From positions 1-46,987 of the forward strand of contig JBMORM010000022.1 in assembly GCA_049322675.1 (NCBI GenBank): a stretch of DNA of 46,987 nucleotides, in the 5' to 3' direction. Shown one piece after another: positions 9,063-45,872 of the stretch (position 1 is its first letter; each line of letters opens with the position of its first letter). The position numbers and the translations under genes are program-made. The stretch comes from Patescibacteria group bacterium (GTDB lineage: Bacteria > Patescibacteriota > JAHJAL01). The notes beneath the pieces are model-generated. The model saw nothing but the letters and a program-made list of their open reading frames with translations, had not been told where the DNA came from and ran no database searches.

Positions 9063-10193
9063 ATGAAATTGGTAATAAAAAAGTTTTGGTGGGTGGGAGT
9101 GATAGTTAGTTTGTTATTTGTTGTTGCTTTTTTTATATATCAAAATCGATGGAACTATTATTTATTCGTTGGTACCGTAGTTGATGCTCAAACAAAAAAA
9201 CCGATTGAAAAAGCGCAAGTGGAAGTGGGAAGTTGGAAGGATGGTCAAAACGATATCGTTTACGATAATATTGGTGGAGTTCAAGCTATTGGTGGCGAGA
9301 GTGTGGATTATACTGATAAACAGGGTAATTTTCGAATGTATCCTGTATTTTGGAGTAGAGTAAAAGAAATAAAAGTATATTTATTTGATCAAGAAAAGTA
9401 TTATGATTTTAAGTTGGAACCAAAATTTGACTGGAGCAGATTGGCGATGCGACAGGATTTAGAGATAGATTTAAATAGCGATAGAGTATTGACTGATTGG
9501 AGTAAGTATCAGATGGATTTAGATGAATATGTAGAGGTTAAGAAAGATTTTCCTACGGAAATAATTGATAAAAATGATGACGCAGATGTTGATAATAATC
9601 GATTGGATGTTTCGAAGGAGATGAAGGATTTTATTGCGATGATTGTTCAGGCGGAGAAGGATAAAAATTATGGTATAATATGGGATTTTGCGTATATCGA
9701 TGATAAGAATATCTGGTTAAATAAAGATGATTTTATTTATTACTGGTCCAGAAAAAAAGAGATAGAAGAAGAAGTGATGTGGGATCTTTTTGGATCGAAA
9801 AGTTTGAGATATTGTCCTCAGATGAAGAAAATTAATTCTTGGCAGGATCCAAAAAATGGGATTGTCTATAATAATGTATATGAAGTAATGGTTGGTAATC
9901 ACATTGACGATCGTACTTATGGGAGATGGAATTATTATCAGGTTTTTCATGTTATTGACGTGGGTGGCGAGTATTTTTATTTTATGTCTTTGTCGAGGGA
10001 TAAGGTGGTTGAATTTGTTGATAATTTTGATCCAAATTGGGAAAAAAATTTTGAAGATAATTATTCAAAGTATCTCGAGTATGAATCTGAAGTGCAGCGT
10101 GTTAGCGGTTATTTTGCAAATGGGGCAGGATGGGCAAATATGCGTATGTCGTCAGGCAATAAATATGATGCTTATCCTTATTGTGAAGAGTAA
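9063..10193 (+). CDS. Membrane-anchored hypothetical protein with carboxypeptidase-regulatory-like N-terminal domain
   Basis: 376 aa. An N-terminal TM helix is followed by the pattern GTVVDAQTKKPIEKAQV...TDKQGNF. Confidence 0.65.
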   Translation: MKLVIKKFWWVGVIVSLLFVVAFFIYQNRWNYYLFVGTVVDAQTKKPIEKAQVEVGSWKDGQNDIVYDNIGGVQAIGGESVDYTDKQGNFRMYPVFWSRVKEIKVYLFDQEKYYDFKLEPKFDWSRLAMRQDLEIDLNSDRVLTDWSKYQMDLDEYVEVKKDFPTEIIDKNDDADVDNNRLDVSKEMKDFIAMIVQAEKDKNYGIIWDFAYIDDKNIWLNKDDFIYYWSRKKEIEEEVMWDLFGSKSLRYCPQMKKINSWQDPKNGIVYNNVYEVMVGNHIDDRTYGRWNYYQVFHVIDVGGEYFYFMSLSRDKVVEFVDNFDPNWEKNFEDNYSKYLEYESEVQRVSGYFANGAGWANMRMSSGNKYDAYPYCEE

Positions 10194-10218
10194 TTTATTT
10201 TAGATATGAGTTAGTTTT

Positions 10219-11742
10219 ATGGTAAATATTTTAGGGATCGAAACCAGTTGTGATGAGACGGGAGTGGCGGTGGTACATGGGGGAAATTTCCAATTTCCAG
10301 TTTATCCCTCACGGGACCGAACTGCTGCTGGCAATTTCCAAAAAAATAATGTAGGGGCGGGTTTCAAACCTGCCCGTACGAGATGTGGCGATTTTCGAAT
10401 TCTAGCGGAGGGGTTGGCTAGTTCGGTGGATTTGCAGAAGGAATATGGCGGGGTGGTGCCGGAGTTGGCGAGTCGGGTGCATGTGGAGAAAATAAATCTG
10501 TTGTTGGCCAAATGTTTAAAACAAGCAAAGTTGGATTGGAGTGATATTGATGCGATCGCGGTGGCCAATGGTCCGGGGTTGGTTGGTTCATTATTGGTGG
10601 GAACGATGGTGGCGAAGACCTTGGGGATGGTTTTGGGAAAACCGTTGATATCTGTTAATCATCTTGAGGGACACATTTGTTCGGCTTTTTTGGCGGAAAA
10701 TACAGGAATTTTCAATTTTCAATTTTTCCCTCGCGGGACCGAACTGCTGCTGGCAATTTTTAATAAATTTTCAATTTCCAATTTTCAAAAAAATAATGTA
10801 GGGGCGGGTTTTAAACCCGCCCAGATAGGGGAAAATAATAAAAATCAGGAAAATACTTTTCCAATGTTGGTGTTGATTGTGAGTGGGGGGCATACGGAAT
10901 TGTTAATAATGAAGGATTTCGGGGAGTATGAGATGTTGGGGAGTACGGTGGATGATGCGGCGGGAGAGGCGTTTGATAAAGCGGCGAAAATACTGGGCCT
11001 GGATTATCCGGGAGGGCCGAGCATTTCGCGGCGGGCCGCGGAATGCAATTTCCAGTTTCCAATTTCCAGTTTCCAAACAAATAATGTAGGGGCGGGTTTT
11101 CCCCGCCCTTCGACGGAATTTTCTGGGTCGGAATTTTCCTGTTCTAATGTCAATATTGCGAAGGGCGGGGGAACCCCGCCCGTACAAACGGGTGAAAATT
11201 TTGATTTTGTTTTGCCGCGCCCGATGATTGAGACGGATGATTTCAATTTTTCTTTTTCGGGGCTTAAAACGGCGCTGTTATATAAATGGAAAGAAATTTC
11301 CAATTTTTCCCCTCACGGGGATCAGCTGGTGCCGAAATTTCCAATTTCCAAAAAATTTCCAATGACCAATTTCCAAATTGAGAAGGGAAAAAACATTAGT
11401 AGGGGCGGGGTTACCCCGCCCCTACGAGATGAATTGGTGAATAGGATGGCATATGAATTTCAGGAGGCGGTGGTGGATGTTTTGGTGACGAAGACGGTGA
11501 AGGCGGCGGAGAAGTTTAAGATTAATAAAGTGGCGATTGTCGGTGGGGTGGCAGCCAATGGGAGATTTAGAGAGGAGATGAAAATTCGATTGGATAAAAT
11601 CGGGCGGCAATTGATAGTTCCGCCGATTAAATATTGTACGGACAATGGGGCGAAGATCGCGGTGGCGGGATTTTTTAAATATCTAAAAAAAGATTTTACT
11701 GATTGGAAAAAGTTGGAAGTTAATAGCAATTGGGAACTTTGA
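10219..11742 (+). CDS. tsaD: tRNA N6-adenosine threonylcarbamoyltransferase TsaD carrying four in-frame repeat-derived insertions
   Basis: ILGIETSCDET, GGVVPELASRVH, GPGLVGSL, NHLEGH, VSGGHT, DDAAGEAFDK, FSFSGLKT, GGVAAN and CTDNG are all intact and in one frame. 507 aa. Confidence 0.95.
   Translation: MVNILGIETSCDETGVAVVHGGNFQFPVYPSRDRTAAGNFQKNNVGAGFKPARTRCGDFRILAEGLASSVDLQKEYGGVVPELASRVHVEKINLLLAKCLKQAKLDWSDIDAIAVANGPGLVGSLLVGTMVAKTLGMVLGKPLISVNHLEGHICSAFLAENTGIFNFQFFPRGTELLLAIFNKFSISNFQKNNVGAGFKPAQIGENNKNQENTFPMLVLIVSGGHTELLIMKDFGEYEMLGSTVDDAAGEAFDKAAKILGLDYPGGPSISRRAAECNFQFPISSFQTNNVGAGFPRPSTEFSGSEFSCSNVNIAKGGGTPPVQTGENFDFVLPRPMIETDDFNFSFSGLKTALLYKWKEISNFSPHGDQLVPKFPISKKFPMTNFQIEKGKNISRGGVTPPLRDELVNRMAYEFQEAVVDVLVTKTVKAAEKFKINKVAIVGGVAANGRFREEMKIRLDKIGRQLIVPPIKYCTDNGAKIAVAGFFKYLKKDFTDWKKLEVNSNWEL
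10285..10380 (+). repeat. tsaD insertion 1: heptamer tract + 31-nt unit + GTAG REP
   Basis: AATTTCC repeats, then the 31-nt unit at 10306-10336, then GTAGGGGCGGGTTTCAAACCTGCCCGTAC at 10351-10379. Encodes NFQFPVYPSRDRTAAGNFQKNNVGAGFKPART. Confidence 0.9.
10707..10825 (+). repeat. tsaD insertion 2: heptamer tract + 31-nt unit + GTAG REP
   Basis: 31-nt unit at 10728-10758 and GTAGGGGCGGGTTTTAAACCCGCCC at 10798-10822. Confidence 0.9.
11047..11190 (+). repeat. tsaD insertion 3: heptamer tract + inverted REP pair (REPIN-like)
   Basis: GTAGGGGCGGGTTTTCCCCGCCCT from 11086 and its inverted partner AGGGCGGGGGAACCCCGCCCGTAC ending at 11185. Confidence 0.9.
11295..11425 (+). repeat. tsaD insertion 4: heptamer tract + degenerate 31-nt unit + perfect REP palindrome
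   Basis: ccctcacggggatcagctggtgccgaaatt at 11310-11339 and GTAGGGGCGGGG-TTA-CCCCGCCCCTAC at 11399-11425. Confidence 0.9.
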
Positions 11743-11862
11743 AACAATTTTTAATTTGTAATTTTTAATTTCTAAATATATTTTGAGGATATTATTTAGA
11801 TATATTAAACTCTTAAAAACTCTTTTAAACGTTTATAAACTCTTTGAAACTGGGGAAAATTT

Positions 11863-12010
11863 ATTGTGTCATCCTGGAACTGAAAGTGTCCTACTGGGCG
11901 TTTTAATATCCAGGATCCAGAACAAAATTTAAATTAATTTTTTCTTCAAATTATTTTTCTGGATCCTGGATAATGGAGCGGATTACCTTCCATTTCCAGG
12001 ATGACACAAT
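11863..12010. repeat. GTGTCATCCTGG...CCAGGATGACAC palindromic MITE-like element, copy 1
   Basis: Terminal IR attgtgtcatcctggaa/ttccaggatgacacaat and inner IR atccaggatccag/ctggatcctggat. A related copy lies at 31451-31565. Confidence 0.85.
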
Positions 12011-12137
12011 TCTTTTTGTTCCAAATATCTAATATTTTGAATTACCTATTGTTATCTGTTATTTGTTTAGAAATTAGAAATTAGAAATTAAAAATTGTAA
12101 AATAAGGTAGTTATAAATATTATCGAAGGATGATGTT

Positions 12138-14954
12138 ATGAGTGACGAGATGGACAAGATATTTGAGCCGGAGAAGTATGAGAGGGAGATATATAGGTCG
12201 TGGGAGGAAGGCGGTTTTTTTAAGGTTGAAATTGATGAAAATAGACAGCCATATACTATTATGATGCCGCCGCCCAACGCGACGGGGGTGTTGCATATCG
12301 GTCATGCGGTATTTTTATCGGTGTCAGATGCGATTATCAGATATAAACGCATGAAGGGATTTAATGCTTTGTGGCTTCCGGGGACGGATCATGCGGCAAT
12401 CGCGACGCAGACCAAGGTCGAAAAATTGATTGCCAAAGAAGGTCTCAATCGATTCGATTTGGGGAGGGAAAAATTTGTCCAAAGGGTGAAAGATTATGTG
12501 GAAAATTCTCGTTCGACGATGAAAAAGCAAATCAGAGCGACGGGGGCGAGTTGTGACTGGTCGCGCGAGGCTTATACTTTTTCTGATGAATTGTCGGTGG
12601 CGGTTAATACGGCTTTTTCCAAATTGTATGAAAAAGGTTTGATTTATCGGGGAGATCGGATTGTCAATTGGTGTCCGCGTTGCGGATCGACGTTGGCCGA
12701 TGATGAACTGGAATACAAGACGGAGAAAACTATTTTATATACATTTAAATATGATAAAGATTTTCCGATAACGATTGCGACGACGCGGCCGGAGACCAAG
12801 TTGGGCGATACGGCAGTGGCGGTCAATCCGGAGGATAAAAGATATCAGAAATTTATTGGTCAGACTTTGACGGCGGATTTTTGTGGACAAAAACTGGAGA
12901 TCAAAATTATTGCGGATGCCAATGTGGAAAGTGATTTTGGAACCGGGGCCTTGGGAGTGACGCCGGCGCATAGTATGGTGGATTTTGAGATGGCGCAAAA
13001 AAATGATTTGCCGGTTATCAAAATTATTGGTGAAGATGGCAAGATGAATGAGGCAGCGGGCGATTTTGTCGGTATGTCGGTAAAAGAAGCTCGGGAAAAA
13101 GTAATTGAAAACTTGAGAAAAAATAATCTGATCGAAAAAGAAGAAGAAATTGAACACAATTTGTCGGTTTGTTATCGTTGTTCGACTCCGATTGAACCGC
13201 TAACCAGCAAACAGTGGTTTGTAGATGTGCATAAAAAAGTGGATGGTTGGGATCGGGAAAAAATTAAAGGGTTGAATGTCGGAGAAAAGTATTCGATAAA
13301 AGATGTGGCGCGGTTGGTGGTGACCAATGGTCAGATTGAATTGATGCCGGAATCTTTCAATAAAGTGTATTTTAGTTGGATGGACAATTTGCGGGATTGG
13401 TGTATATCTAGGCAGATTTGGTGGGGACACCGGATTCCTGTTTGGTACAGGAATAATTTTCAATTTCCAATTTCCAATTTCCAATCAATTTCCAATTTTC
13501 AAACAAATAATGTAGGGGCACAGAATTCTGTGCCCATTGATGGAAAAAATACCAATCAGGAAATATATGTGGGAGTGAATCCGCCGGAGGGGGAGGGGTG
13601 GGTGCAGGATCAGGATACTTTGGATACTTGGTTTTCTTCGGCGTTGTGGACTTTCTCGACTTTGGGTTGGCCGGAAAAAACGGTGGATTTGTCGTACTTT
13701 CATCCTACGGATTTGATGGTAACAGGACGAGAAATTATTTTTCAGTGGGTGGCGAGGATGATTATTATGTCAACTTATCTGATGGGTGAGATTCCGTTTA
13801 AAAAAGTTTATTTTACCGGCTTGTTGTTTGATAAAGAAGGGCGCAAGATGAGCAAGTCGCTGGAAAACATTATCGATCCGATGGAGATGATTGAAAAATA
13901 CGGAGCGGATGCATTGCGCTTGTCTATTATAGTTGGTAATACGCCGGGAGTTGATTTTAAATATTATGATGAAAAAATAATCGGTCAGAGAAATTTCATA
14001 AATAAATTGTGGAATGTATCACGATTTATTATGGGCAAATTGGAACCGGGGATTGGTGGGGAGCAGATTGATATTCGGGATATTAGAGAAATAAATTTGA
14101 CCAAGGTGGACAAGTGGATTTTGAGCAAAATGGATGATTTGATTCAAAGAACTGGTAAACATTTGGATAATTATCGATTGGGGTTGGCGATTGAAGAAAT
14201 AAATAATTTTGTCTGGCATGATTTGGCGGATTGGTACCTTGAAATCATAAAATTTCCAATTTTCAATTTTCAATTTTCAAACAATAATGTAGGGGCAGGT
14301 CGCGACCTGCCTGATAATGAGATACAGCAAAGAAATCGGGACATACAGAAAATTTTGATTTTTATTTTGCAGAATATATTGGTTTTATTACATCCGTTTG
14401 TGCCGTTTGTGACGGAAGTGATATGGGAGAAATTGGGGAAGGGAGATTGGGGAAGATTGATTGCTCAGCCTTGGCCTGAGGTTTATGGGTTTGATTATCG
14501 TGATGAGCAAAAGGAAGTGAATAGTATTATCTTTGTTATTTCTCAAGTAAGGCAGGCGTTGACTGACGCTGGTTTGCAGACCCAAAATAATTTGGAATTG
14601 AAGTTGGTTTTTGAGGAAAAAAATCATGATGGGGCTTTATTGATGGAAACAATGGGAAAGATGCTACGAGCGGTAAAAAAGATTGATAAAGTAAATAGTG
14701 TGGCAGGTGATTCGTTGGTGGTAAATGTTGATGATGTTAAAGTTGGGATAAATGTAGATGAAAGTGTTTTGAAAGAAAGAAAAGAACAAGAAAAAAAAGA
14801 GTTGGTTGATTTGGAAAAATATATTGCAGATTTATCCAAGAGATTGGAAAATAAGCAGTTTGTAGAAAATGCACCAAAGGAAGTAGTTGAAAAAGAGCGG
14901 GAAAAATTGGCTAAGGCGAGGGAGAGACGCAGTCAACTTGCAATTAATAATTAG
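12138..14954 (+). CDS. valS: Valyl-tRNA synthetase with two in-frame repeat-derived insertions
   Basis: 938 aa with PPPNATGVLHIGH, PGTDHAAIATQ, ATTRPET, DWCISRQIWWGHRIP, DTLDTWFSS, KMSKS and a C-terminal coiled coil. Confidence 0.97.
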   Translation: MSDEMDKIFEPEKYEREIYRSWEEGGFFKVEIDENRQPYTIMMPPPNATGVLHIGHAVFLSVSDAIIRYKRMKGFNALWLPGTDHAAIATQTKVEKLIAKEGLNRFDLGREKFVQRVKDYVENSRSTMKKQIRATGASCDWSREAYTFSDELSVAVNTAFSKLYEKGLIYRGDRIVNWCPRCGSTLADDELEYKTEKTILYTFKYDKDFPITIATTRPETKLGDTAVAVNPEDKRYQKFIGQTLTADFCGQKLEIKIIADANVESDFGTGALGVTPAHSMVDFEMAQKNDLPVIKIIGEDGKMNEAAGDFVGMSVKEAREKVIENLRKNNLIEKEEEIEHNLSVCYRCSTPIEPLTSKQWFVDVHKKVDGWDREKIKGLNVGEKYSIKDVARLVVTNGQIELMPESFNKVYFSWMDNLRDWCISRQIWWGHRIPVWYRNNFQFPISNFQSISNFQTNNVGAQNSVPIDGKNTNQEIYVGVNPPEGEGWVQDQDTLDTWFSSALWTFSTLGWPEKTVDLSYFHPTDLMVTGREIIFQWVARMIIMSTYLMGEIPFKKVYFTGLLFDKEGRKMSKSLENIIDPMEMIEKYGADALRLSIIVGNTPGVDFKYYDEKIIGQRNFINKLWNVSRFIMGKLEPGIGGEQIDIRDIREINLTKVDKWILSKMDDLIQRTGKHLDNYRLGLAIEEINNFVWHDLADWYLEIIKFPIFNFQFSNNNVGAGRDLPDNEIQQRNRDIQKILIFILQNILVLLHPFVPFVTEVIWEKLGKGDWGRLIAQPWPEVYGFDYRDEQKEVNSIIFVISQVRQALTDAGLQTQNNLELKLVFEEKNHDGALLMETMGKMLRAVKKIDKVNSVAGDSLVVNVDDVKVGINVDESVLKERKEQEKKELVDLEKYIADLSKRLENKQFVENAPKEVVEKEREKLAKARERRSQLAINN
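13455..13540 (+). repeat. valS insertion 1: heptamer tract + GTAG REP
   Basis: (AATTTCC)n followed by GTAGGGGCACAGAATTCTGTGCCC at 13512-13535. Encodes NFQFPISNFQSISNFQTNNVGAQNSVP. Confidence 0.9.
14251..14312 (+). repeat. valS insertion 2: heptamer tract + GTAG REP
   Basis: (AATTTTC)n followed by GTAGGGGCAGGTCGCGACCTGCC at 14289-14311. Encodes FPIFNFQFSNNNVGAGRDLP. Confidence 0.9.
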
Positions 14955-14966
14955 CAATGAACAATT

Positions 14967-15163
14967 GTTGGAAAGTTATAAAGTTGTAAAGTGGGAGAAA
15001 ATGATATGAATTTAACTTGATAATTTTATGATTTTTTAACTTTTTAACTGCGATTTATTTATTGGGTTTTGTTGGAAAGTTATAAAGTTTATAAAGTTGT
15101 AAAGTGGGAGAAAAAGATATGAATTTAACTTTCAACTTGATAACTTTTAACTTTTTTTAACTG
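14967..15163. repeat. Tandem pair (~104-bp period) of AAAGTTN/NAACTTT hairpin elements
   Basis: gttggaaagttataaagtt...gtgggagaaa..gatatgaatttaact occurs at 14967 and again at 15071. Confidence 0.75.
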
Positions 15164-15171
15164 TAATTTTA

Positions 15172-16095
15172 ATGCAAAATTGGAAAAAAATATTATATTC
15201 CGTGGGGATGGGGGTGGTGGCTTGTTTGATTGTGGTGGCAACTGGTGTGTTGCTTTGGCAATTGACGGCCGGACAACGACGGACGATGGCGGAGGAATAT
15301 TTACAGAAGGCTGATGATTATTTGGCCGAAGATGACGGACAGGCTTTGTGGGAGTTGACAAAAGCCTATACTTTGGATTTGAGTTATCGGGATTATCGAG
15401 TAAAGAGGGCTTTGGCTTTGCGGACTTTGGGCGACAAAGATGCGGAAAAAGAGTTGAAGGAAGTAATTGATCTTAATTGGGCTGATGACATGGTGAATTT
15501 TCGTTATGCCGAGATTTTGTTGGAACAAGGTAAGGAAAATGAGGCGGTTGATTTTTTTAAAAAGGTGACGAATCGAGCTGATAGTGAGGTAAAAAATGAG
15601 GTTTTGTTGAATTTGCTGCAGTTGGCTGGAAATCAGGGAAAGTGGGAAGAGGCGGTGGGTTTTCGAGGGCAATTGATTGATCTGGAAAAAAATAATCCGG
15701 AAAAATTGCGTTATGAAGCGGCTCTTTCTTTGGTGACGGTAGATTTGAATGATGAACTGAAAAAAAAGTTGAAGTTGGTATTGGGTGAAAAATTTTCGGA
15801 AGAAAAATATACCATTTTGAATCAAGTGAATGGGGATAGTTATGTGGTGCAAGCGGCTGATTGGTTGTTGGATTTGGGTTTGACAAAGTGGGGTCGTAAT
15901 TATCTGCAACAGTTGGATCAAACTGATTTGGAAATGATAGATGTTTATTTGTTGCAAGCCAAGAGTTATTGGTTGGAAGGAAAATGTGCTTTGGCTGCGG
16001 ATTATATTGAACGGACGTATCAAATTGATTCGACAAATGAGCAGGTGAGGGAGTGGGAAGAGTTGATAGGTGGGGGATGTAGAGAATTAAAATAA
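15172..16095 (+). CDS. Membrane-anchored TPR-repeat protein
   Basis: 307 aa. An N-terminal TM helix is followed by helical repeats such as YAEILLEQGKENEAVDFFKKV and AKSYWLEGKCALAADY. Confidence 0.7.
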   Translation: MQNWKKILYSVGMGVVACLIVVATGVLLWQLTAGQRRTMAEEYLQKADDYLAEDDGQALWELTKAYTLDLSYRDYRVKRALALRTLGDKDAEKELKEVIDLNWADDMVNFRYAEILLEQGKENEAVDFFKKVTNRADSEVKNEVLLNLLQLAGNQGKWEEAVGFRGQLIDLEKNNPEKLRYEAALSLVTVDLNDELKKKLKLVLGEKFSEEKYTILNQVNGDSYVVQAADWLLDLGLTKWGRNYLQQLDQTDLEMIDVYLLQAKSYWLEGKCALAADYIERTYQIDSTNEQVREWEELIGGGCRELK

Positions 16096-16247
16096 ATTTC
16101 CAATTTCCAATTTTCGATTTCCAATAAAGGCTCAATTTTTCCCTCACGGGACCGAACCGCTGCTGGCAATTTTCAAACAAGTAGGTATTTCATTGGAAAT
16201 TGTGAATTGGAAATTTTTTGGAAATTGGAAATTGTGAATTGGAAATT
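16095..16247. repeat. Heptamer hairpin element with 31-nt unit
   Basis: The (AATTTCC)n arm abuts the upstream stop codon, the 31-nt unit lies at 16141-16171, and the (GGAAATT)n arm ends 8 nt before the next ATG. Confidence 0.9.
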
Positions 16248-16255
16248 GCTAATTT

Positions 16256-17698
16256 ATGGAAATAAATATATTAAAGAGAAAGGCTTGGAAGTGGTTGGGG
16301 GAGAACAGGGAATATTTGATTATATCTCTGGTTTTTTTGTTGGTTTATTGTTTGTTGTCGGTGGTCAAGCATTTTAATTTTCAGACGGCGGCGTTTGATA
16401 TGGGGATTTTTAATCAATCGCTTTATTTGTATTCCCATGGTTGGTTGGGTCCAAATACGATTAGACAAGTGGCGACGTTGTTTGGAGATCATTTTGAGCC
16501 GATAATGCTTTTGATCAGCCCTTTGTATTATATTTTTCGGTCATATACTTTGCTTTTGGTACAGATAGCGGCGGTGATTTTTGGTGGGACCGGGGTGTAT
16601 TTGTTGGTGAAAAAGGAGACGAATGATAAAAAATTGGCGGTAGGTTCTTTGTTAATATTTTATTTGTTTTATGGGGTATATGATGCGATAGTTTTTGATT
16701 ATCACAATGGAGTATTGGGGATCATGTTGATACCTTGGTTGTTTTATTGTTGGTCGGTTCGTAAATGGGGTTGGTACTATGCGTTGTTGATTTTGATGTT
16801 GTTGTGTAAGGAAAATTTGGCTTTGATGTTGTTTTGTTTGGGATTTTCAATTTGGTGGTGGGCTGACAAGAAGGATAAAAAACATAGTTTGATAACTGGT
16901 GGTTTGAGCGCGGTCTATTTTTTGGTAGTAATATATTTGCTTATTCCCCATTTCAATGAGGGAAAATATGATCATTGGTTGTCTTATGCCAAATATGGGG
17001 CGACGCCGGTGGCGGGTTTGATATTTTTTCTGACCCATCCGTGGGAGTTGGTAAAGTTATTTTTTGATGATATTCAAAAAATTAAGACTTGGGGAATGAT
17101 TTTGCTGACCGGGGGAATTTTGGCTTTTTGGAAACCGAAATATTCTTTGATATTGTTGCCGGTGTTGGCACAAAAATTTTTGTCGGCTAATCCGGTTTAT
17201 TGGGGGCATATTTTTCATTATTCAATCGAGTTTTCTTTGGTGATTGCTATCGGGGTGGGAGTATTTTTGGGTCAAATAAAAAAACCAATCTGGAAATATG
17301 GTTTGATGGTGTTTTTTGTAATAATGAATGTAGCGGTTTTAAATAGTGTTCATTTTTATGATGGTCGGACGATTAGAGATATTTTCTTACCAAAAAATTA
17401 TCAAATTGGTTTTGATCGAAATGATGTGTGGGAGGCGATGAAATTGATTCCGGCGGGGGCGGCGGTGAGTGCGCAAAATACCCTGGTGTCTCATCTGGCC
17501 GATCGGAGGAAAATATTTTTGTATCCGGCGGTGGAGGATAGTGAATATATTATTTTCAACTTGAAAGATTTTAGTTTTTGGCCGACGACAAAGGAGGATG
17601 TTGAACGGGATGTGTTGAAGTATGAACAAAGTGGTTCTGGGTGGGACAAGGTTTATGAAAAAAATGGGGTGGTTCTTTTTAGGAAAATCAACGATTAA
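16256..17698 (+). CDS. DUF2079-like polytopic membrane protein (probable GT-C glycosyltransferase)
   Basis: 480 aa with many TM helices and the motifs FDMGIFNQ, FGDHFEPI, FDYH, CKEN and FHYS. Confidence 0.75.
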   Translation: MEINILKRKAWKWLGENREYLIISLVFLLVYCLLSVVKHFNFQTAAFDMGIFNQSLYLYSHGWLGPNTIRQVATLFGDHFEPIMLLISPLYYIFRSYTLLLVQIAAVIFGGTGVYLLVKKETNDKKLAVGSLLIFYLFYGVYDAIVFDYHNGVLGIMLIPWLFYCWSVRKWGWYYALLILMLLCKENLALMLFCLGFSIWWWADKKDKKHSLITGGLSAVYFLVVIYLLIPHFNEGKYDHWLSYAKYGATPVAGLIFFLTHPWELVKLFFDDIQKIKTWGMILLTGGILAFWKPKYSLILLPVLAQKFLSANPVYWGHIFHYSIEFSLVIAIGVGVFLGQIKKPIWKYGLMVFFVIMNVAVLNSVHFYDGRTIRDIFLPKNYQIGFDRNDVWEAMKLIPAGAAVSAQNTLVSHLADRRKIFLYPAVEDSEYIIFNLKDFSFWPTTKEDVERDVLKYEQSGSGWDKVYEKNGVVLFRKIND

Positions 17699-34413: not shown

Positions 34414-34543
34414 AATTTCCAGTTTCCAGTTTCCAATTTCCAAAAAAGGCTCAATTTCCAAACGAATGCAATCTGTTCCTGTATTTGTTTGGAAATTGAT
34501 CATTGGAAATTTATTGAAAATTGGAAATTGAGAATTGAAAATT
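34414..34543. repeat. Heptamer hairpin element
   Basis: Same architecture including the aaggctcaatttccaaac and gtttggaaattgatcattggaaatt core. Abuts the prgI stop codon. Confidence 0.9.
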
Positions 34544-40653: not shown

Positions 40654-40821
40654 AATTTCCAATTCTCAATTTCCAATTTCCAAAAAATGACTCAATTTCC
40701 AAACAAATTCAAGATGCTTTCTTATTAAGTTGAATCTGTTAGGAAATTGGTCATTGAAAATTTATTGGAAATTGAGAATTGCCAGCAGCAGTTCGGTCCC
40801 GTGAGGGGAAAATTGGAAATT
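40654..40821. repeat. Heptamer hairpin element with 31-nt unit in reverse orientation
   Basis: AATTGCCAGCAGCAGTTCGGTCCCGTGAGGG at 40777-40807 lies within the GGAAATT arm. Confidence 0.9.
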
Positions 40822-45715: not shown

Positions 45716-45872
45716 AATTTTTCCCTCACGGGACCGAACTGCTGCTGGCAATTTCCAGTTTCCAGTTTCCAATGAAGGCTCAATTTCCAATTTTCAAAAA
45801 ATGTTTTGTTGGGATATTTGGAAATTGGTCATTGGAAATTTTTTGGAAATTGAGAATTGAAAATTGGAAATT
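45716..45872. repeat. Heptamer hairpin element with 31-nt unit
   Basis: 31-nt unit at 45723-45753, aaggctcaatttcc core and a GGAAATT arm running to 45872. Confidence 0.9.

Follow-up and report, generated by a model that had tools for sequence, protein, structure and literature searches.

Interspersed elements that combine a small set of short motifs, with order and number differing between copies, are known from the E. coli bacterial interspersed mosaic elements (BIMEs) and the pneumococcal BOX elements, which are extragenic or only occasionally intragenic, unlike the inserts described here. Rickettsia palindromic elements (RPEs) each encode a conserved peptide, according to part of a review of MITEs, miniature transposable elements with inverted repeats (PMC10969869). 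For repetitive extragenic palindromes (REPs) of the GTAG type, sections of Di Nocera et al. 2013 (PMC3733652) describe intragenic copies, single or as dimers, many of them in replication and repair genes, with dimers encoding 20–30 AA and clusters 43–82 AA that are likely located in loops. The stretch analysed here (the window) is the whole 46,987-nt contig C22 of the Patescibacteria genome G000 (1.23 Mb, 25 contigs, 37.7% G+C), in which the genes tsaD and valS carry four and two repeat-built inserts, respectively. The genomes of Patescibacteria are tiny and are regarded as streamlined. Our results suggest that the six inserts are probably intragenic copies of the genome's own interspersed repeats, resident in permissive loops and translated.

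The tsaD coding sequence (10219..11742, + strand) is an intact open reading frame (ORF) for a 507-AA product, which matches NCBIfam TIGR03723 with 352 bits (cut-off 296). The gene is single-copy, with no other full TsaD match in G000, and its closest homologues carry a Patescibacteria label from their sources. The valS coding sequence (12138..14954, + strand) is likewise an intact ORF, found once in the genome; its 938-AA product matches the NCBIfam valine--tRNA ligase family with 968 bits (cut-off 704), carries the HIGH and KMSKS motifs and was aligned to 1gax_A. A first-pass annotation of this DNA had described an oversized TsaD and six in-frame inserts in the two genes, and this was confirmed: TsaD measures 318–430 AA in 28 relatives, and all six inserts keep the frame and are free of stops. 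The insert coordinates given there held to within a few bases, but they are not exact boundaries, since four of the six spans are not multiples of three.

The inserts, all read here on the + strand, share a common layout. Insert 1 of tsaD (10285..10380) consists of (AATTTCC)2, a 27-nt module (10306-10332), another heptamer, AATAAT and a GTAG REP hairpin (10351-10379). Insert 2 (10707..10825) has heptamers on both sides of the module, which is read in another frame, followed by AATAAT and a REP hairpin (10798-10822). In insert 3 (11047..11190) four heptamers and CAAACAAATAAT are followed by two inverted REPs (11086-11108 and 11163-11185) forming a doublet that resembles a REPIN, the inverted REP pair, and in insert 4 (11295..11428) a variant module and heptamers are joined by a REP that is a perfect palindrome (11399-11425) and is read in the RGG frame. 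The 27-nt module thus occurs in three tsaD inserts, in its common form at sites 1 and 2 and as the variant at site 4. Insert 1 of valS (13455..13535) is made of a heptamer tract, the shared AATTTTCAAACAAAT and a 27-nt REP (13509-13535) that is absent from the same-genus genome G001; insert 2 (14251..14312) contains heptamers, CAAACAATAAT and a REP hairpin.

The first-pass annotation had also noticed that five of the six inserts share an AATAAT-GTAG junction. We found AATAATGTAGGGGC five times in the window against 0.03 copies expected, a number reached in none of 100 shuffles, and a scan of the 1.23-Mb genome showed that these five are its only copies. The sixth insert, at tsaD site 4, has ATTAGTAGGGGC in place of AATAATGTAGGGGC. 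The shorter word GTAGGGGC occurs seven times in the window, every time within the six inserts, and in all six it is followed by a stem of 7–13 bp, as in GTAG REPs. At tsaD site 3 the REPs form an inverted doublet whose two members pair (the insert folds with −61.2 kcal/mol), and the other five inserts hold singlets. A single composite element copied six times was considered and rejected, as the five REP stems that follow the identical junction differ from one another.

The inserts can be described as a mosaic of three DNA modules: (AATTTYC)n arrays that end in CAAA(C/A)AAAT, the 27-nt CCCTCACGGGACCGAACTGCTGCTGGC, and GTAG-tagged, G+C-rich REP hairpins, of a type that appears to be associated with a single REP-associated tyrosine transposase (RAYT)-like Y1 gene. 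All three belong to genome-wide families. With a heptamer tract defined as at least two A[AG]TTT[TC]C units, G000 holds 262 tracts grouped into 151 (AATTTYC)n loci. The majority (129/151) lie outside 14 insert-bearing genes, and 65 of these 129 are inverted pairs, written (AATTTCC)n..spacer..(GGAAATT)n, whose inner end CAAACAAAT is conserved. The remaining 22 loci are inside the 14 genes, all of them long, and none has both arms; they are always single arms. Compared with a crude coding fraction of 0.89, this genic share is strongly deficient. The 27-nt module is present in 23 copies, nine of them within the insert-bearing genes. The phenomenon first noted in tsaD and valS is genome-wide. Twelve of the 14 insert-bearing genes were confirmed by family searches (tilS, an FtsJ-type methyltransferase gene, holA, polA with three sites, atpG, fmt, rlmN, a U5-methyltransferase gene with two sites, rsmE, a glycosyltransferase gene, tsaD and valS), and the other two had no family match. 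Copies outside genes can be seen in the window itself: an intergenic inverted pair with module and spacer at 16095..16233, flanked by one ORF that ends at 16095 and another that starts at 16256, and, outside long ORFs, an inverted pair at 34414..34529, a further pair at 40668..40821 whose module is on the minus strand and a module with inverted heptamer arms at 45720..45872.

Word GTAGGGGC was counted 51 times in G000, and 29 perfect-stem REP hairpins are dispersed over seven contigs, a low copy number compared with classic REP-rich genomes. Ten of the 29 hairpins are inside long ORFs. The earlier statement that GTAG REPs are normally extragenic needs revision, since intragenic GTAG REPs had already been published, as the relevant sections of PMC3733652 show. 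A REP within 60 nt of a heptamer tract was seen for five of ten genic perfect-stem REPs vs. none of 19 non-genic ones (Fisher p = 0.002, for loci that are not independent, as four sit in two neighbouring genes). One of the perfect hairpins (G000:C9:244790-244810) lies far from heptamer tracts, in a 3639-AA open frame encoding a giant protein. Another observation concerns rlmN (G000:C10:78942-80177, L048): directly behind its radical-SAM cysteine motif lies an insert of about 80 AA, built from a heptamer tract plus several REP hairpins and containing the junction GATACC|GTAGGGGC, and a similar junction, GATACT|GTAGGGGC, is present at tsaD site 2 of the sister species L053.

A search for a RAYT or other Y1 HUH gene, proposed in the first-pass annotation, found a RAYT-like candidate. 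G000 has one such gene (C10:75802-76404; L001 1105-1707), encoding a 200-AA protein with the HUH motif MPNHVHMII that scores 30.7 bits with Pfam Y1_Tnp (cut-off 23). It is a single copy flanked by REPs (at 75568, 75718, 76410 and 76485), with two more within the gene; the perfect-stem hairpins of the genome cluster around it, and one flanking REP differs from that of tsaD site 1 by two bases. The score with NCBIfam REP_Tyr_transpos is 53.2 bits, under the cut-off of 80. The gene also contains in-frame REP-derived sequence (IVGAGSPRPSTV.., VRGEETSPLRK) between the HUH motif and the C-terminal part matching Y1_Tnp, and this may be the reason for the low NCBIfam score.

Comparison of the reading frames indicated, in line with the first-pass annotation, that the shared unit is DNA and not peptide, because the frame and the strand in which a module is read vary between copies. 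The 27-nt module reads as YPSRDRTAAGN in tsaD site 1, rsmE and the glycosyltransferase gene, as FFPRGTELLLAI in tsaD site 2 and, from the other strand, as AAVRSREGK in tilS and holA; REPs read as VGAG.. or RGG... The (AATTTCC)n arrays are stop-free in all six frames and the module is open in five of six. The AATAATGTAG junction is open in only one of the three sense frames, and all five copies use that frame.

The frames also bear on the idea, raised with the first description of the inserts, that they are removed or bypassed at the RNA level, and more widely on any loss prior to the finished protein, through an intron-like RNA, translational bypass or an intein. Stable hairpins within the inserts would suit such a process. 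The REP parts of three tsaD inserts fold with −0.34 to −0.43 kcal/mol per nt vs. −0.185 (standard deviation 0.054) for 200 core windows, and the valS inserts fold no more strongly than core sequence. Removal would lift the constraint on frame, yet none of the six inserts shifts the frame or contains a stop, and 5/5 junctions occupy the sole open frame. Together with the genic deficit, this perfect record is as expected from purifying selection on translated sequence and argues against removal at the RNA level. An Rfam search over 9800-15300 gave no family at threshold, intron and ribozyme families included, and only sub-threshold, hairpin-like microRNA matches. We thus regard removal or bypass as very unlikely.

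In both proteins the inserts lie between conserved parts. Alignment of TsaD with T. maritima TsaD (6n9a_D) gave five collinear blocks separated by the inserts; residues 24-65, 161-213, 274-324 and 357-406, corresponding to inserts 1–4, are unaligned and face only 2–8 residues in 6n9a_D. In an AlphaFold2 model for which 28 sequences were aligned, 300 TsaD residues have a predicted local distance difference test (pLDDT) score of at least 90, and the only long segments with pLDDT < 50 (28-54, 161-210, 281-327 and 369-397) match the four inserts, whose loops are thus predicted to be disordered. The 1gax_A alignment places ValS insert 1 between the WWGHRIPVWY and DTWFSS blocks and insert 2 directly after DWYLE, in the anticodon-binding region. 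Across 29 TsaD sequences the four sites are the columns of variable length, in 28 Patescibacteria sequences they are the loops whose length varies, and the low-complexity inserts reduce TsaD identity to homologues and fragment the alignments. The occurrence of four inserts in one gene had been taken as a sign of targeting. This needs to be revised, since the sites are length-variable loops in which relatives have other repeats, and filtering through permissive loops explains much of the clustering.

Repeats of this kind could in principle be misjoined into genes during assembly: short-read contigs end inside heptamer tracts, and the assembly graph has many repeat-mediated joints. The unique parts of all inserts are nevertheless covered, with 0 mismatches, by contigs of run X1, which may be the source sample. 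Contigs from three other runs, made from different samples, bridge unique parts as well: X2 covers 10308-10798 and 13455-14511, X4 spans 10312-11017 without gaps and X3 spans 14117-14344. Somewhere in the last interval the contigs of X2 and X3 lack 15 nt, an in-frame difference near valS site 2. As separately assembled relatives also have in-frame repeats in the same loops, the assembly artefact that would have overturned the first description did not materialise, and we give it practically no weight.

Neither the repeats nor their positions are confined to G000. Doublets of AATTTYC number 321 in G000, 72 in G021 (another family), 45 in G001, 28 in G013, 14 in G003, 10 in G040, 6 in G005, 4 in G002 (another genus), 2 each in G036 and G010 and 0 in G004, and a species-specific origin of the repeats was rejected on these counts. 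A search for the junction TTYCAAAMAAATAATGTAGGGGC in 185,579 species genomes, from which G000 was possibly left out, gave one match, in a Bacteroidales response-regulator gene; it has neither hairpin nor heptamers and was read as chance. In metagenomes of the Joint Genome Institute (JGI), TTYCAAAMAAATAATGTAGGGGC with R at one position was found on one contig, that of the sister species L053.

Between G000 and G001 the tsaD core DNA is 88.9% identical, vs. 56% over the aligned part of the insert regions, which have 233 gapped columns. All four loops of the G001 gene are filled with different or decayed repeats, and only the site 4 REP is common to both genomes. In G002, REPs are present at tsaD sites 1–3 and heptamers are absent; at site 3 its REP has the same codon position as that of G000, which adds 36 nt of heptamers exactly 5′ of AATGTAG. 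For valS site 1, G000 has 39 nt of heptamers (13455-13493) and the 27-nt REP in excess of G001: the sequence AATTTCCAAACAAAT|ATTGAT of G001 is in G000 interrupted by the REP, between CAAACAAAT and ATTGAT. Site 2 shows a net gain of 48 nt over G001. Length turnover in valS therefore proceeds in multiples of three (+39, +27 and +48 nt, and −15 nt in a related strain). A longer insert with repeated GVDPCVDPH and GGHRKGGHMGPPV peptides occupies the site 1 loop of the G002 ValS (L035), and these peptides look REP-derived.

The TsaD of the sister species (L053 / P0003) is 468 AA long and has heptamer-module-REP composites at tsaD sites 1–3, with REP stem types equal to those of G000 valS. The composite CAAACAAATAAT + GTAGGG(G/A)CACA..TGTG(C/T)CC + ATTGAT is the same, flanks included, in G000 valS site 1 and L053 tsaD site 3. 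Signs of the copying between genes that had been suggested at the outset are thus present. Distant TsaD homologues have 7-residue-periodic peptides in the same loops, several with FSI(S/F)NFQF at site 3, and in G021 site 3 has (AATTTCC)4 followed by a GTAG-tagged hairpin. Turning to other genes, the heptamer tract of fmt and that of atpG each replace a segment of equal length, with no net length change. Genomes G000 and G003, whose Fmt proteins are only 57% identical, have almost the same DNA in their fmt tracts; at the same atpG site the unit in nearly every repeat is AAATTGA in G000 (L060) and AACTTGA in G001 (L061), which looks like concerted change within the array. Several of the tracts and REPs recur within a genus or a family and are therefore old residents. 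Hence the claim that a system keeps adding loops to proteins has to be modified, given these old residents and the unchanged length of fmt and atpG.

Starting from the observed identity, distribution, frames and loop positions of the repeats, and from the observed presence/absence differences between relatives, we propose that repeats entered or overwrote DNA coding for surface loops. The inserts would remain in the mRNA and be translated as disordered loops on an intact catalytic core. Selection would purge the copies that break frame or fold, and in-frame, stop-free copies would persist in a few length-tolerant loops. Since survival would be limited to these loops, they would gather several modules and be reoccupied in related lineages, so that both the clustering and the pile-up of modules could be attributed to selective filtering. 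We infer that the inserts are translated and neutral; the REPs presumably arrived by RAYT-type mobilisation, and the heptamer arrays by slippage, insertion or gene conversion.

Persistence of the same DNA raises the question of function, whether as peptide loops making new contacts or as intragenic DNA or RNA signals, for example arrays to which proteins bind, or RNA hairpins at which ribosomes pause or RNases are blocked. Heptamer DNA has been retained at one site over deep divergence in fmt of G000 and G003 and at tsaD site 3 in G000, G021 and the database homologues with FSI(S/F)NFQF, and REP folds in three tsaD inserts are strong, as given above. Set against this, the same DNA is read in various frames and on both strands in functionally unrelated proteins, same-genus G001 has unalignable sequence in the same loops, the loops are predicted to be disordered and the valS inserts fold no better than the core. 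A functional role for the tracts thus seems unlikely.

A more serious alternative to the filtering of randomly arriving copies is active, site-directed placement, by RAYT-type strand transfer of a composite of heptamer end and REP or by ectopic gene conversion between tsaD and valS, with REPs swapped at a fixed junction. We consider it possible, though well short of probable. It would account for five identical junctions that carry different REP stems and are unique to a 4.7-kb locus, for the composite shared with both flanks (..CAAACAAATAAT / ATTGAT..) by G000 valS site 1 and L053 tsaD site 3, and for the L053 tsaD stem types that recur in G000 valS. The G001 valS sequence, in which the heptamer end meets ATTGAT without the 27-nt REP, implies precise gain or loss; at tsaD site 3 the G002 REP without heptamers likewise corresponds to heptamers placed exactly 5′ of AATGTAG in G000; and REPs adjoin heptamers in genes only. 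On the other side, all 129 non-genic heptamer loci are free of REPs; they have the same CAAACAAAT end, so that a sequence-directed integrase should hit them. Target-site duplications are not definable, because the unit starts with AAT, as do its flanks; the role of the RAYT-like protein is putative; and the junction was seen in three genomes only, all close kin.

Taken further, a copying process in Patescibacteria might place REP cassettes and heptamer arrays at particular sites of essential genes that code for loops, and keep their DNA homogeneous in the long term. It could consist of RAYT-driven strand transfer at AAT|GTAG or of directed gene conversion from a genome-wide pool. If this rather doubtful proposal were true, the heptamer-REP composite would be the product of the process, the arrays might be its landing pad, and coding DNA would be overwritten without length change, as in fmt and atpG.

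Several observations weigh against the filtering of resident repeats as a complete account. The five same junctions, CAAA(C/A)AA(A)TAAT|GTAGGGGC, precede differing REP stems and occur nowhere else in G000; heptamer-REP adjacency is confined to genes (5/10 vs. 0/19, for non-independent loci); and a heptamer-REP composite is common to different genes in two species. The fmt tract is near-identical DNA in G000 and G003 despite 57% protein identity, and G021, from another family, has heptamers and a GTAG-tagged hairpin at tsaD site 3. The fmt and atpG tracts, having caused no net length change, make insertion only part of the story. The candidate RAYT, as judged from its sequence, falls under the NCBIfam cut-off and holds REP-derived sequence in its own frame, and translation of the inserts is deduced solely from the constraints on frame and stops. 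The junctions, the genic adjacency, the shared composite and the deep persistence keep directed copying or conversion in play as a minority possibility. We nevertheless favour intragenic copies of the genome's own repeats, filtered by selection and translated, as the probable origin of the six inserts.

Two other repeats were noticed close to the genes. In the tsaD-valS spacer (11860-12000) there is a different long inverted repeat, GTCATCCTGGAA...TTCCAGGATGAC; since its summed contig depth is very high in each of the four runs and Rfam gives weak matches of hairpin type, it probably represents a further multi-copy family of palindromes. Just 3′ of valS (14965-15160) a unit of about 110 nt is present in two tandem copies (TTGTTGGAAAGTTATAAAGTT..GGGAGAAAA.GATATGAATTTAACTT..).

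Despite the presumed streamlining of these genomes, about one third of TsaD here derives from repeats, which occur in no fewer than 12 conserved genes. For annotation, it matters that TsaD spans 318–507 AA among the relatives examined and that the inserts disturb homologue alignments; for protein evolution, the inserts show which loops tolerate 30–50 extra residues. For mobile-DNA biology, they bring REP/RAYT elements and heptamer arrays to a phylum for which no such report was found in our searches. Presence/absence differences between sister species provide natural filled and empty sites, which makes the mechanism testable. In the literature, which was inspected in part and so leaves unpublished status unproven, we found no report of such inserts in Patescibacteria or of heptamer-REP mosaics in genes.

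Compared with REPIN-RAYT systems as outlined in the portions of the literature consulted, G000 shows the same single Y1 HUH gene flanked by REPs and the same singlets and inverted doublets (tsaD site 3). It differs in its low copy number (29 hairpins, 51 GTAGGGGC words), in the high proportion of intragenic REPs and in the RAYT-like gene, which is under the NCBIfam cut-off and has REP-derived sequence within its frame. The REP parts of the inserts fit the description of intragenic GTAG REPs in PMC3733652, and the heptamer family also hits the replication genes polA and holA; the sections of that paper considered here do not deal with Patescibacteria, heptamer-array fusions or occupancy of the same loop across genera. 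Like RPEs, as characterised in parts of PMC10969869 and PMC3733652, the G000 repeats are short and palindromic, occur both between genes and in frame in many unrelated housekeeping genes of a small genome, and apparently leave the function of the host protein intact. The likeness is one of behaviour only. The phylum is different and so, presumably, are the sequences; the G000 inserts also differ from RPEs, as far as those parts describe them, in being three-module mosaics, one module of which is a heptamer tandem array, and in their varying frame. Within the literature searched, intragenic GTAG REPs and RPEs are thus already known, and what is new here are heptamer-REP mosaics in Patescibacteria genes.

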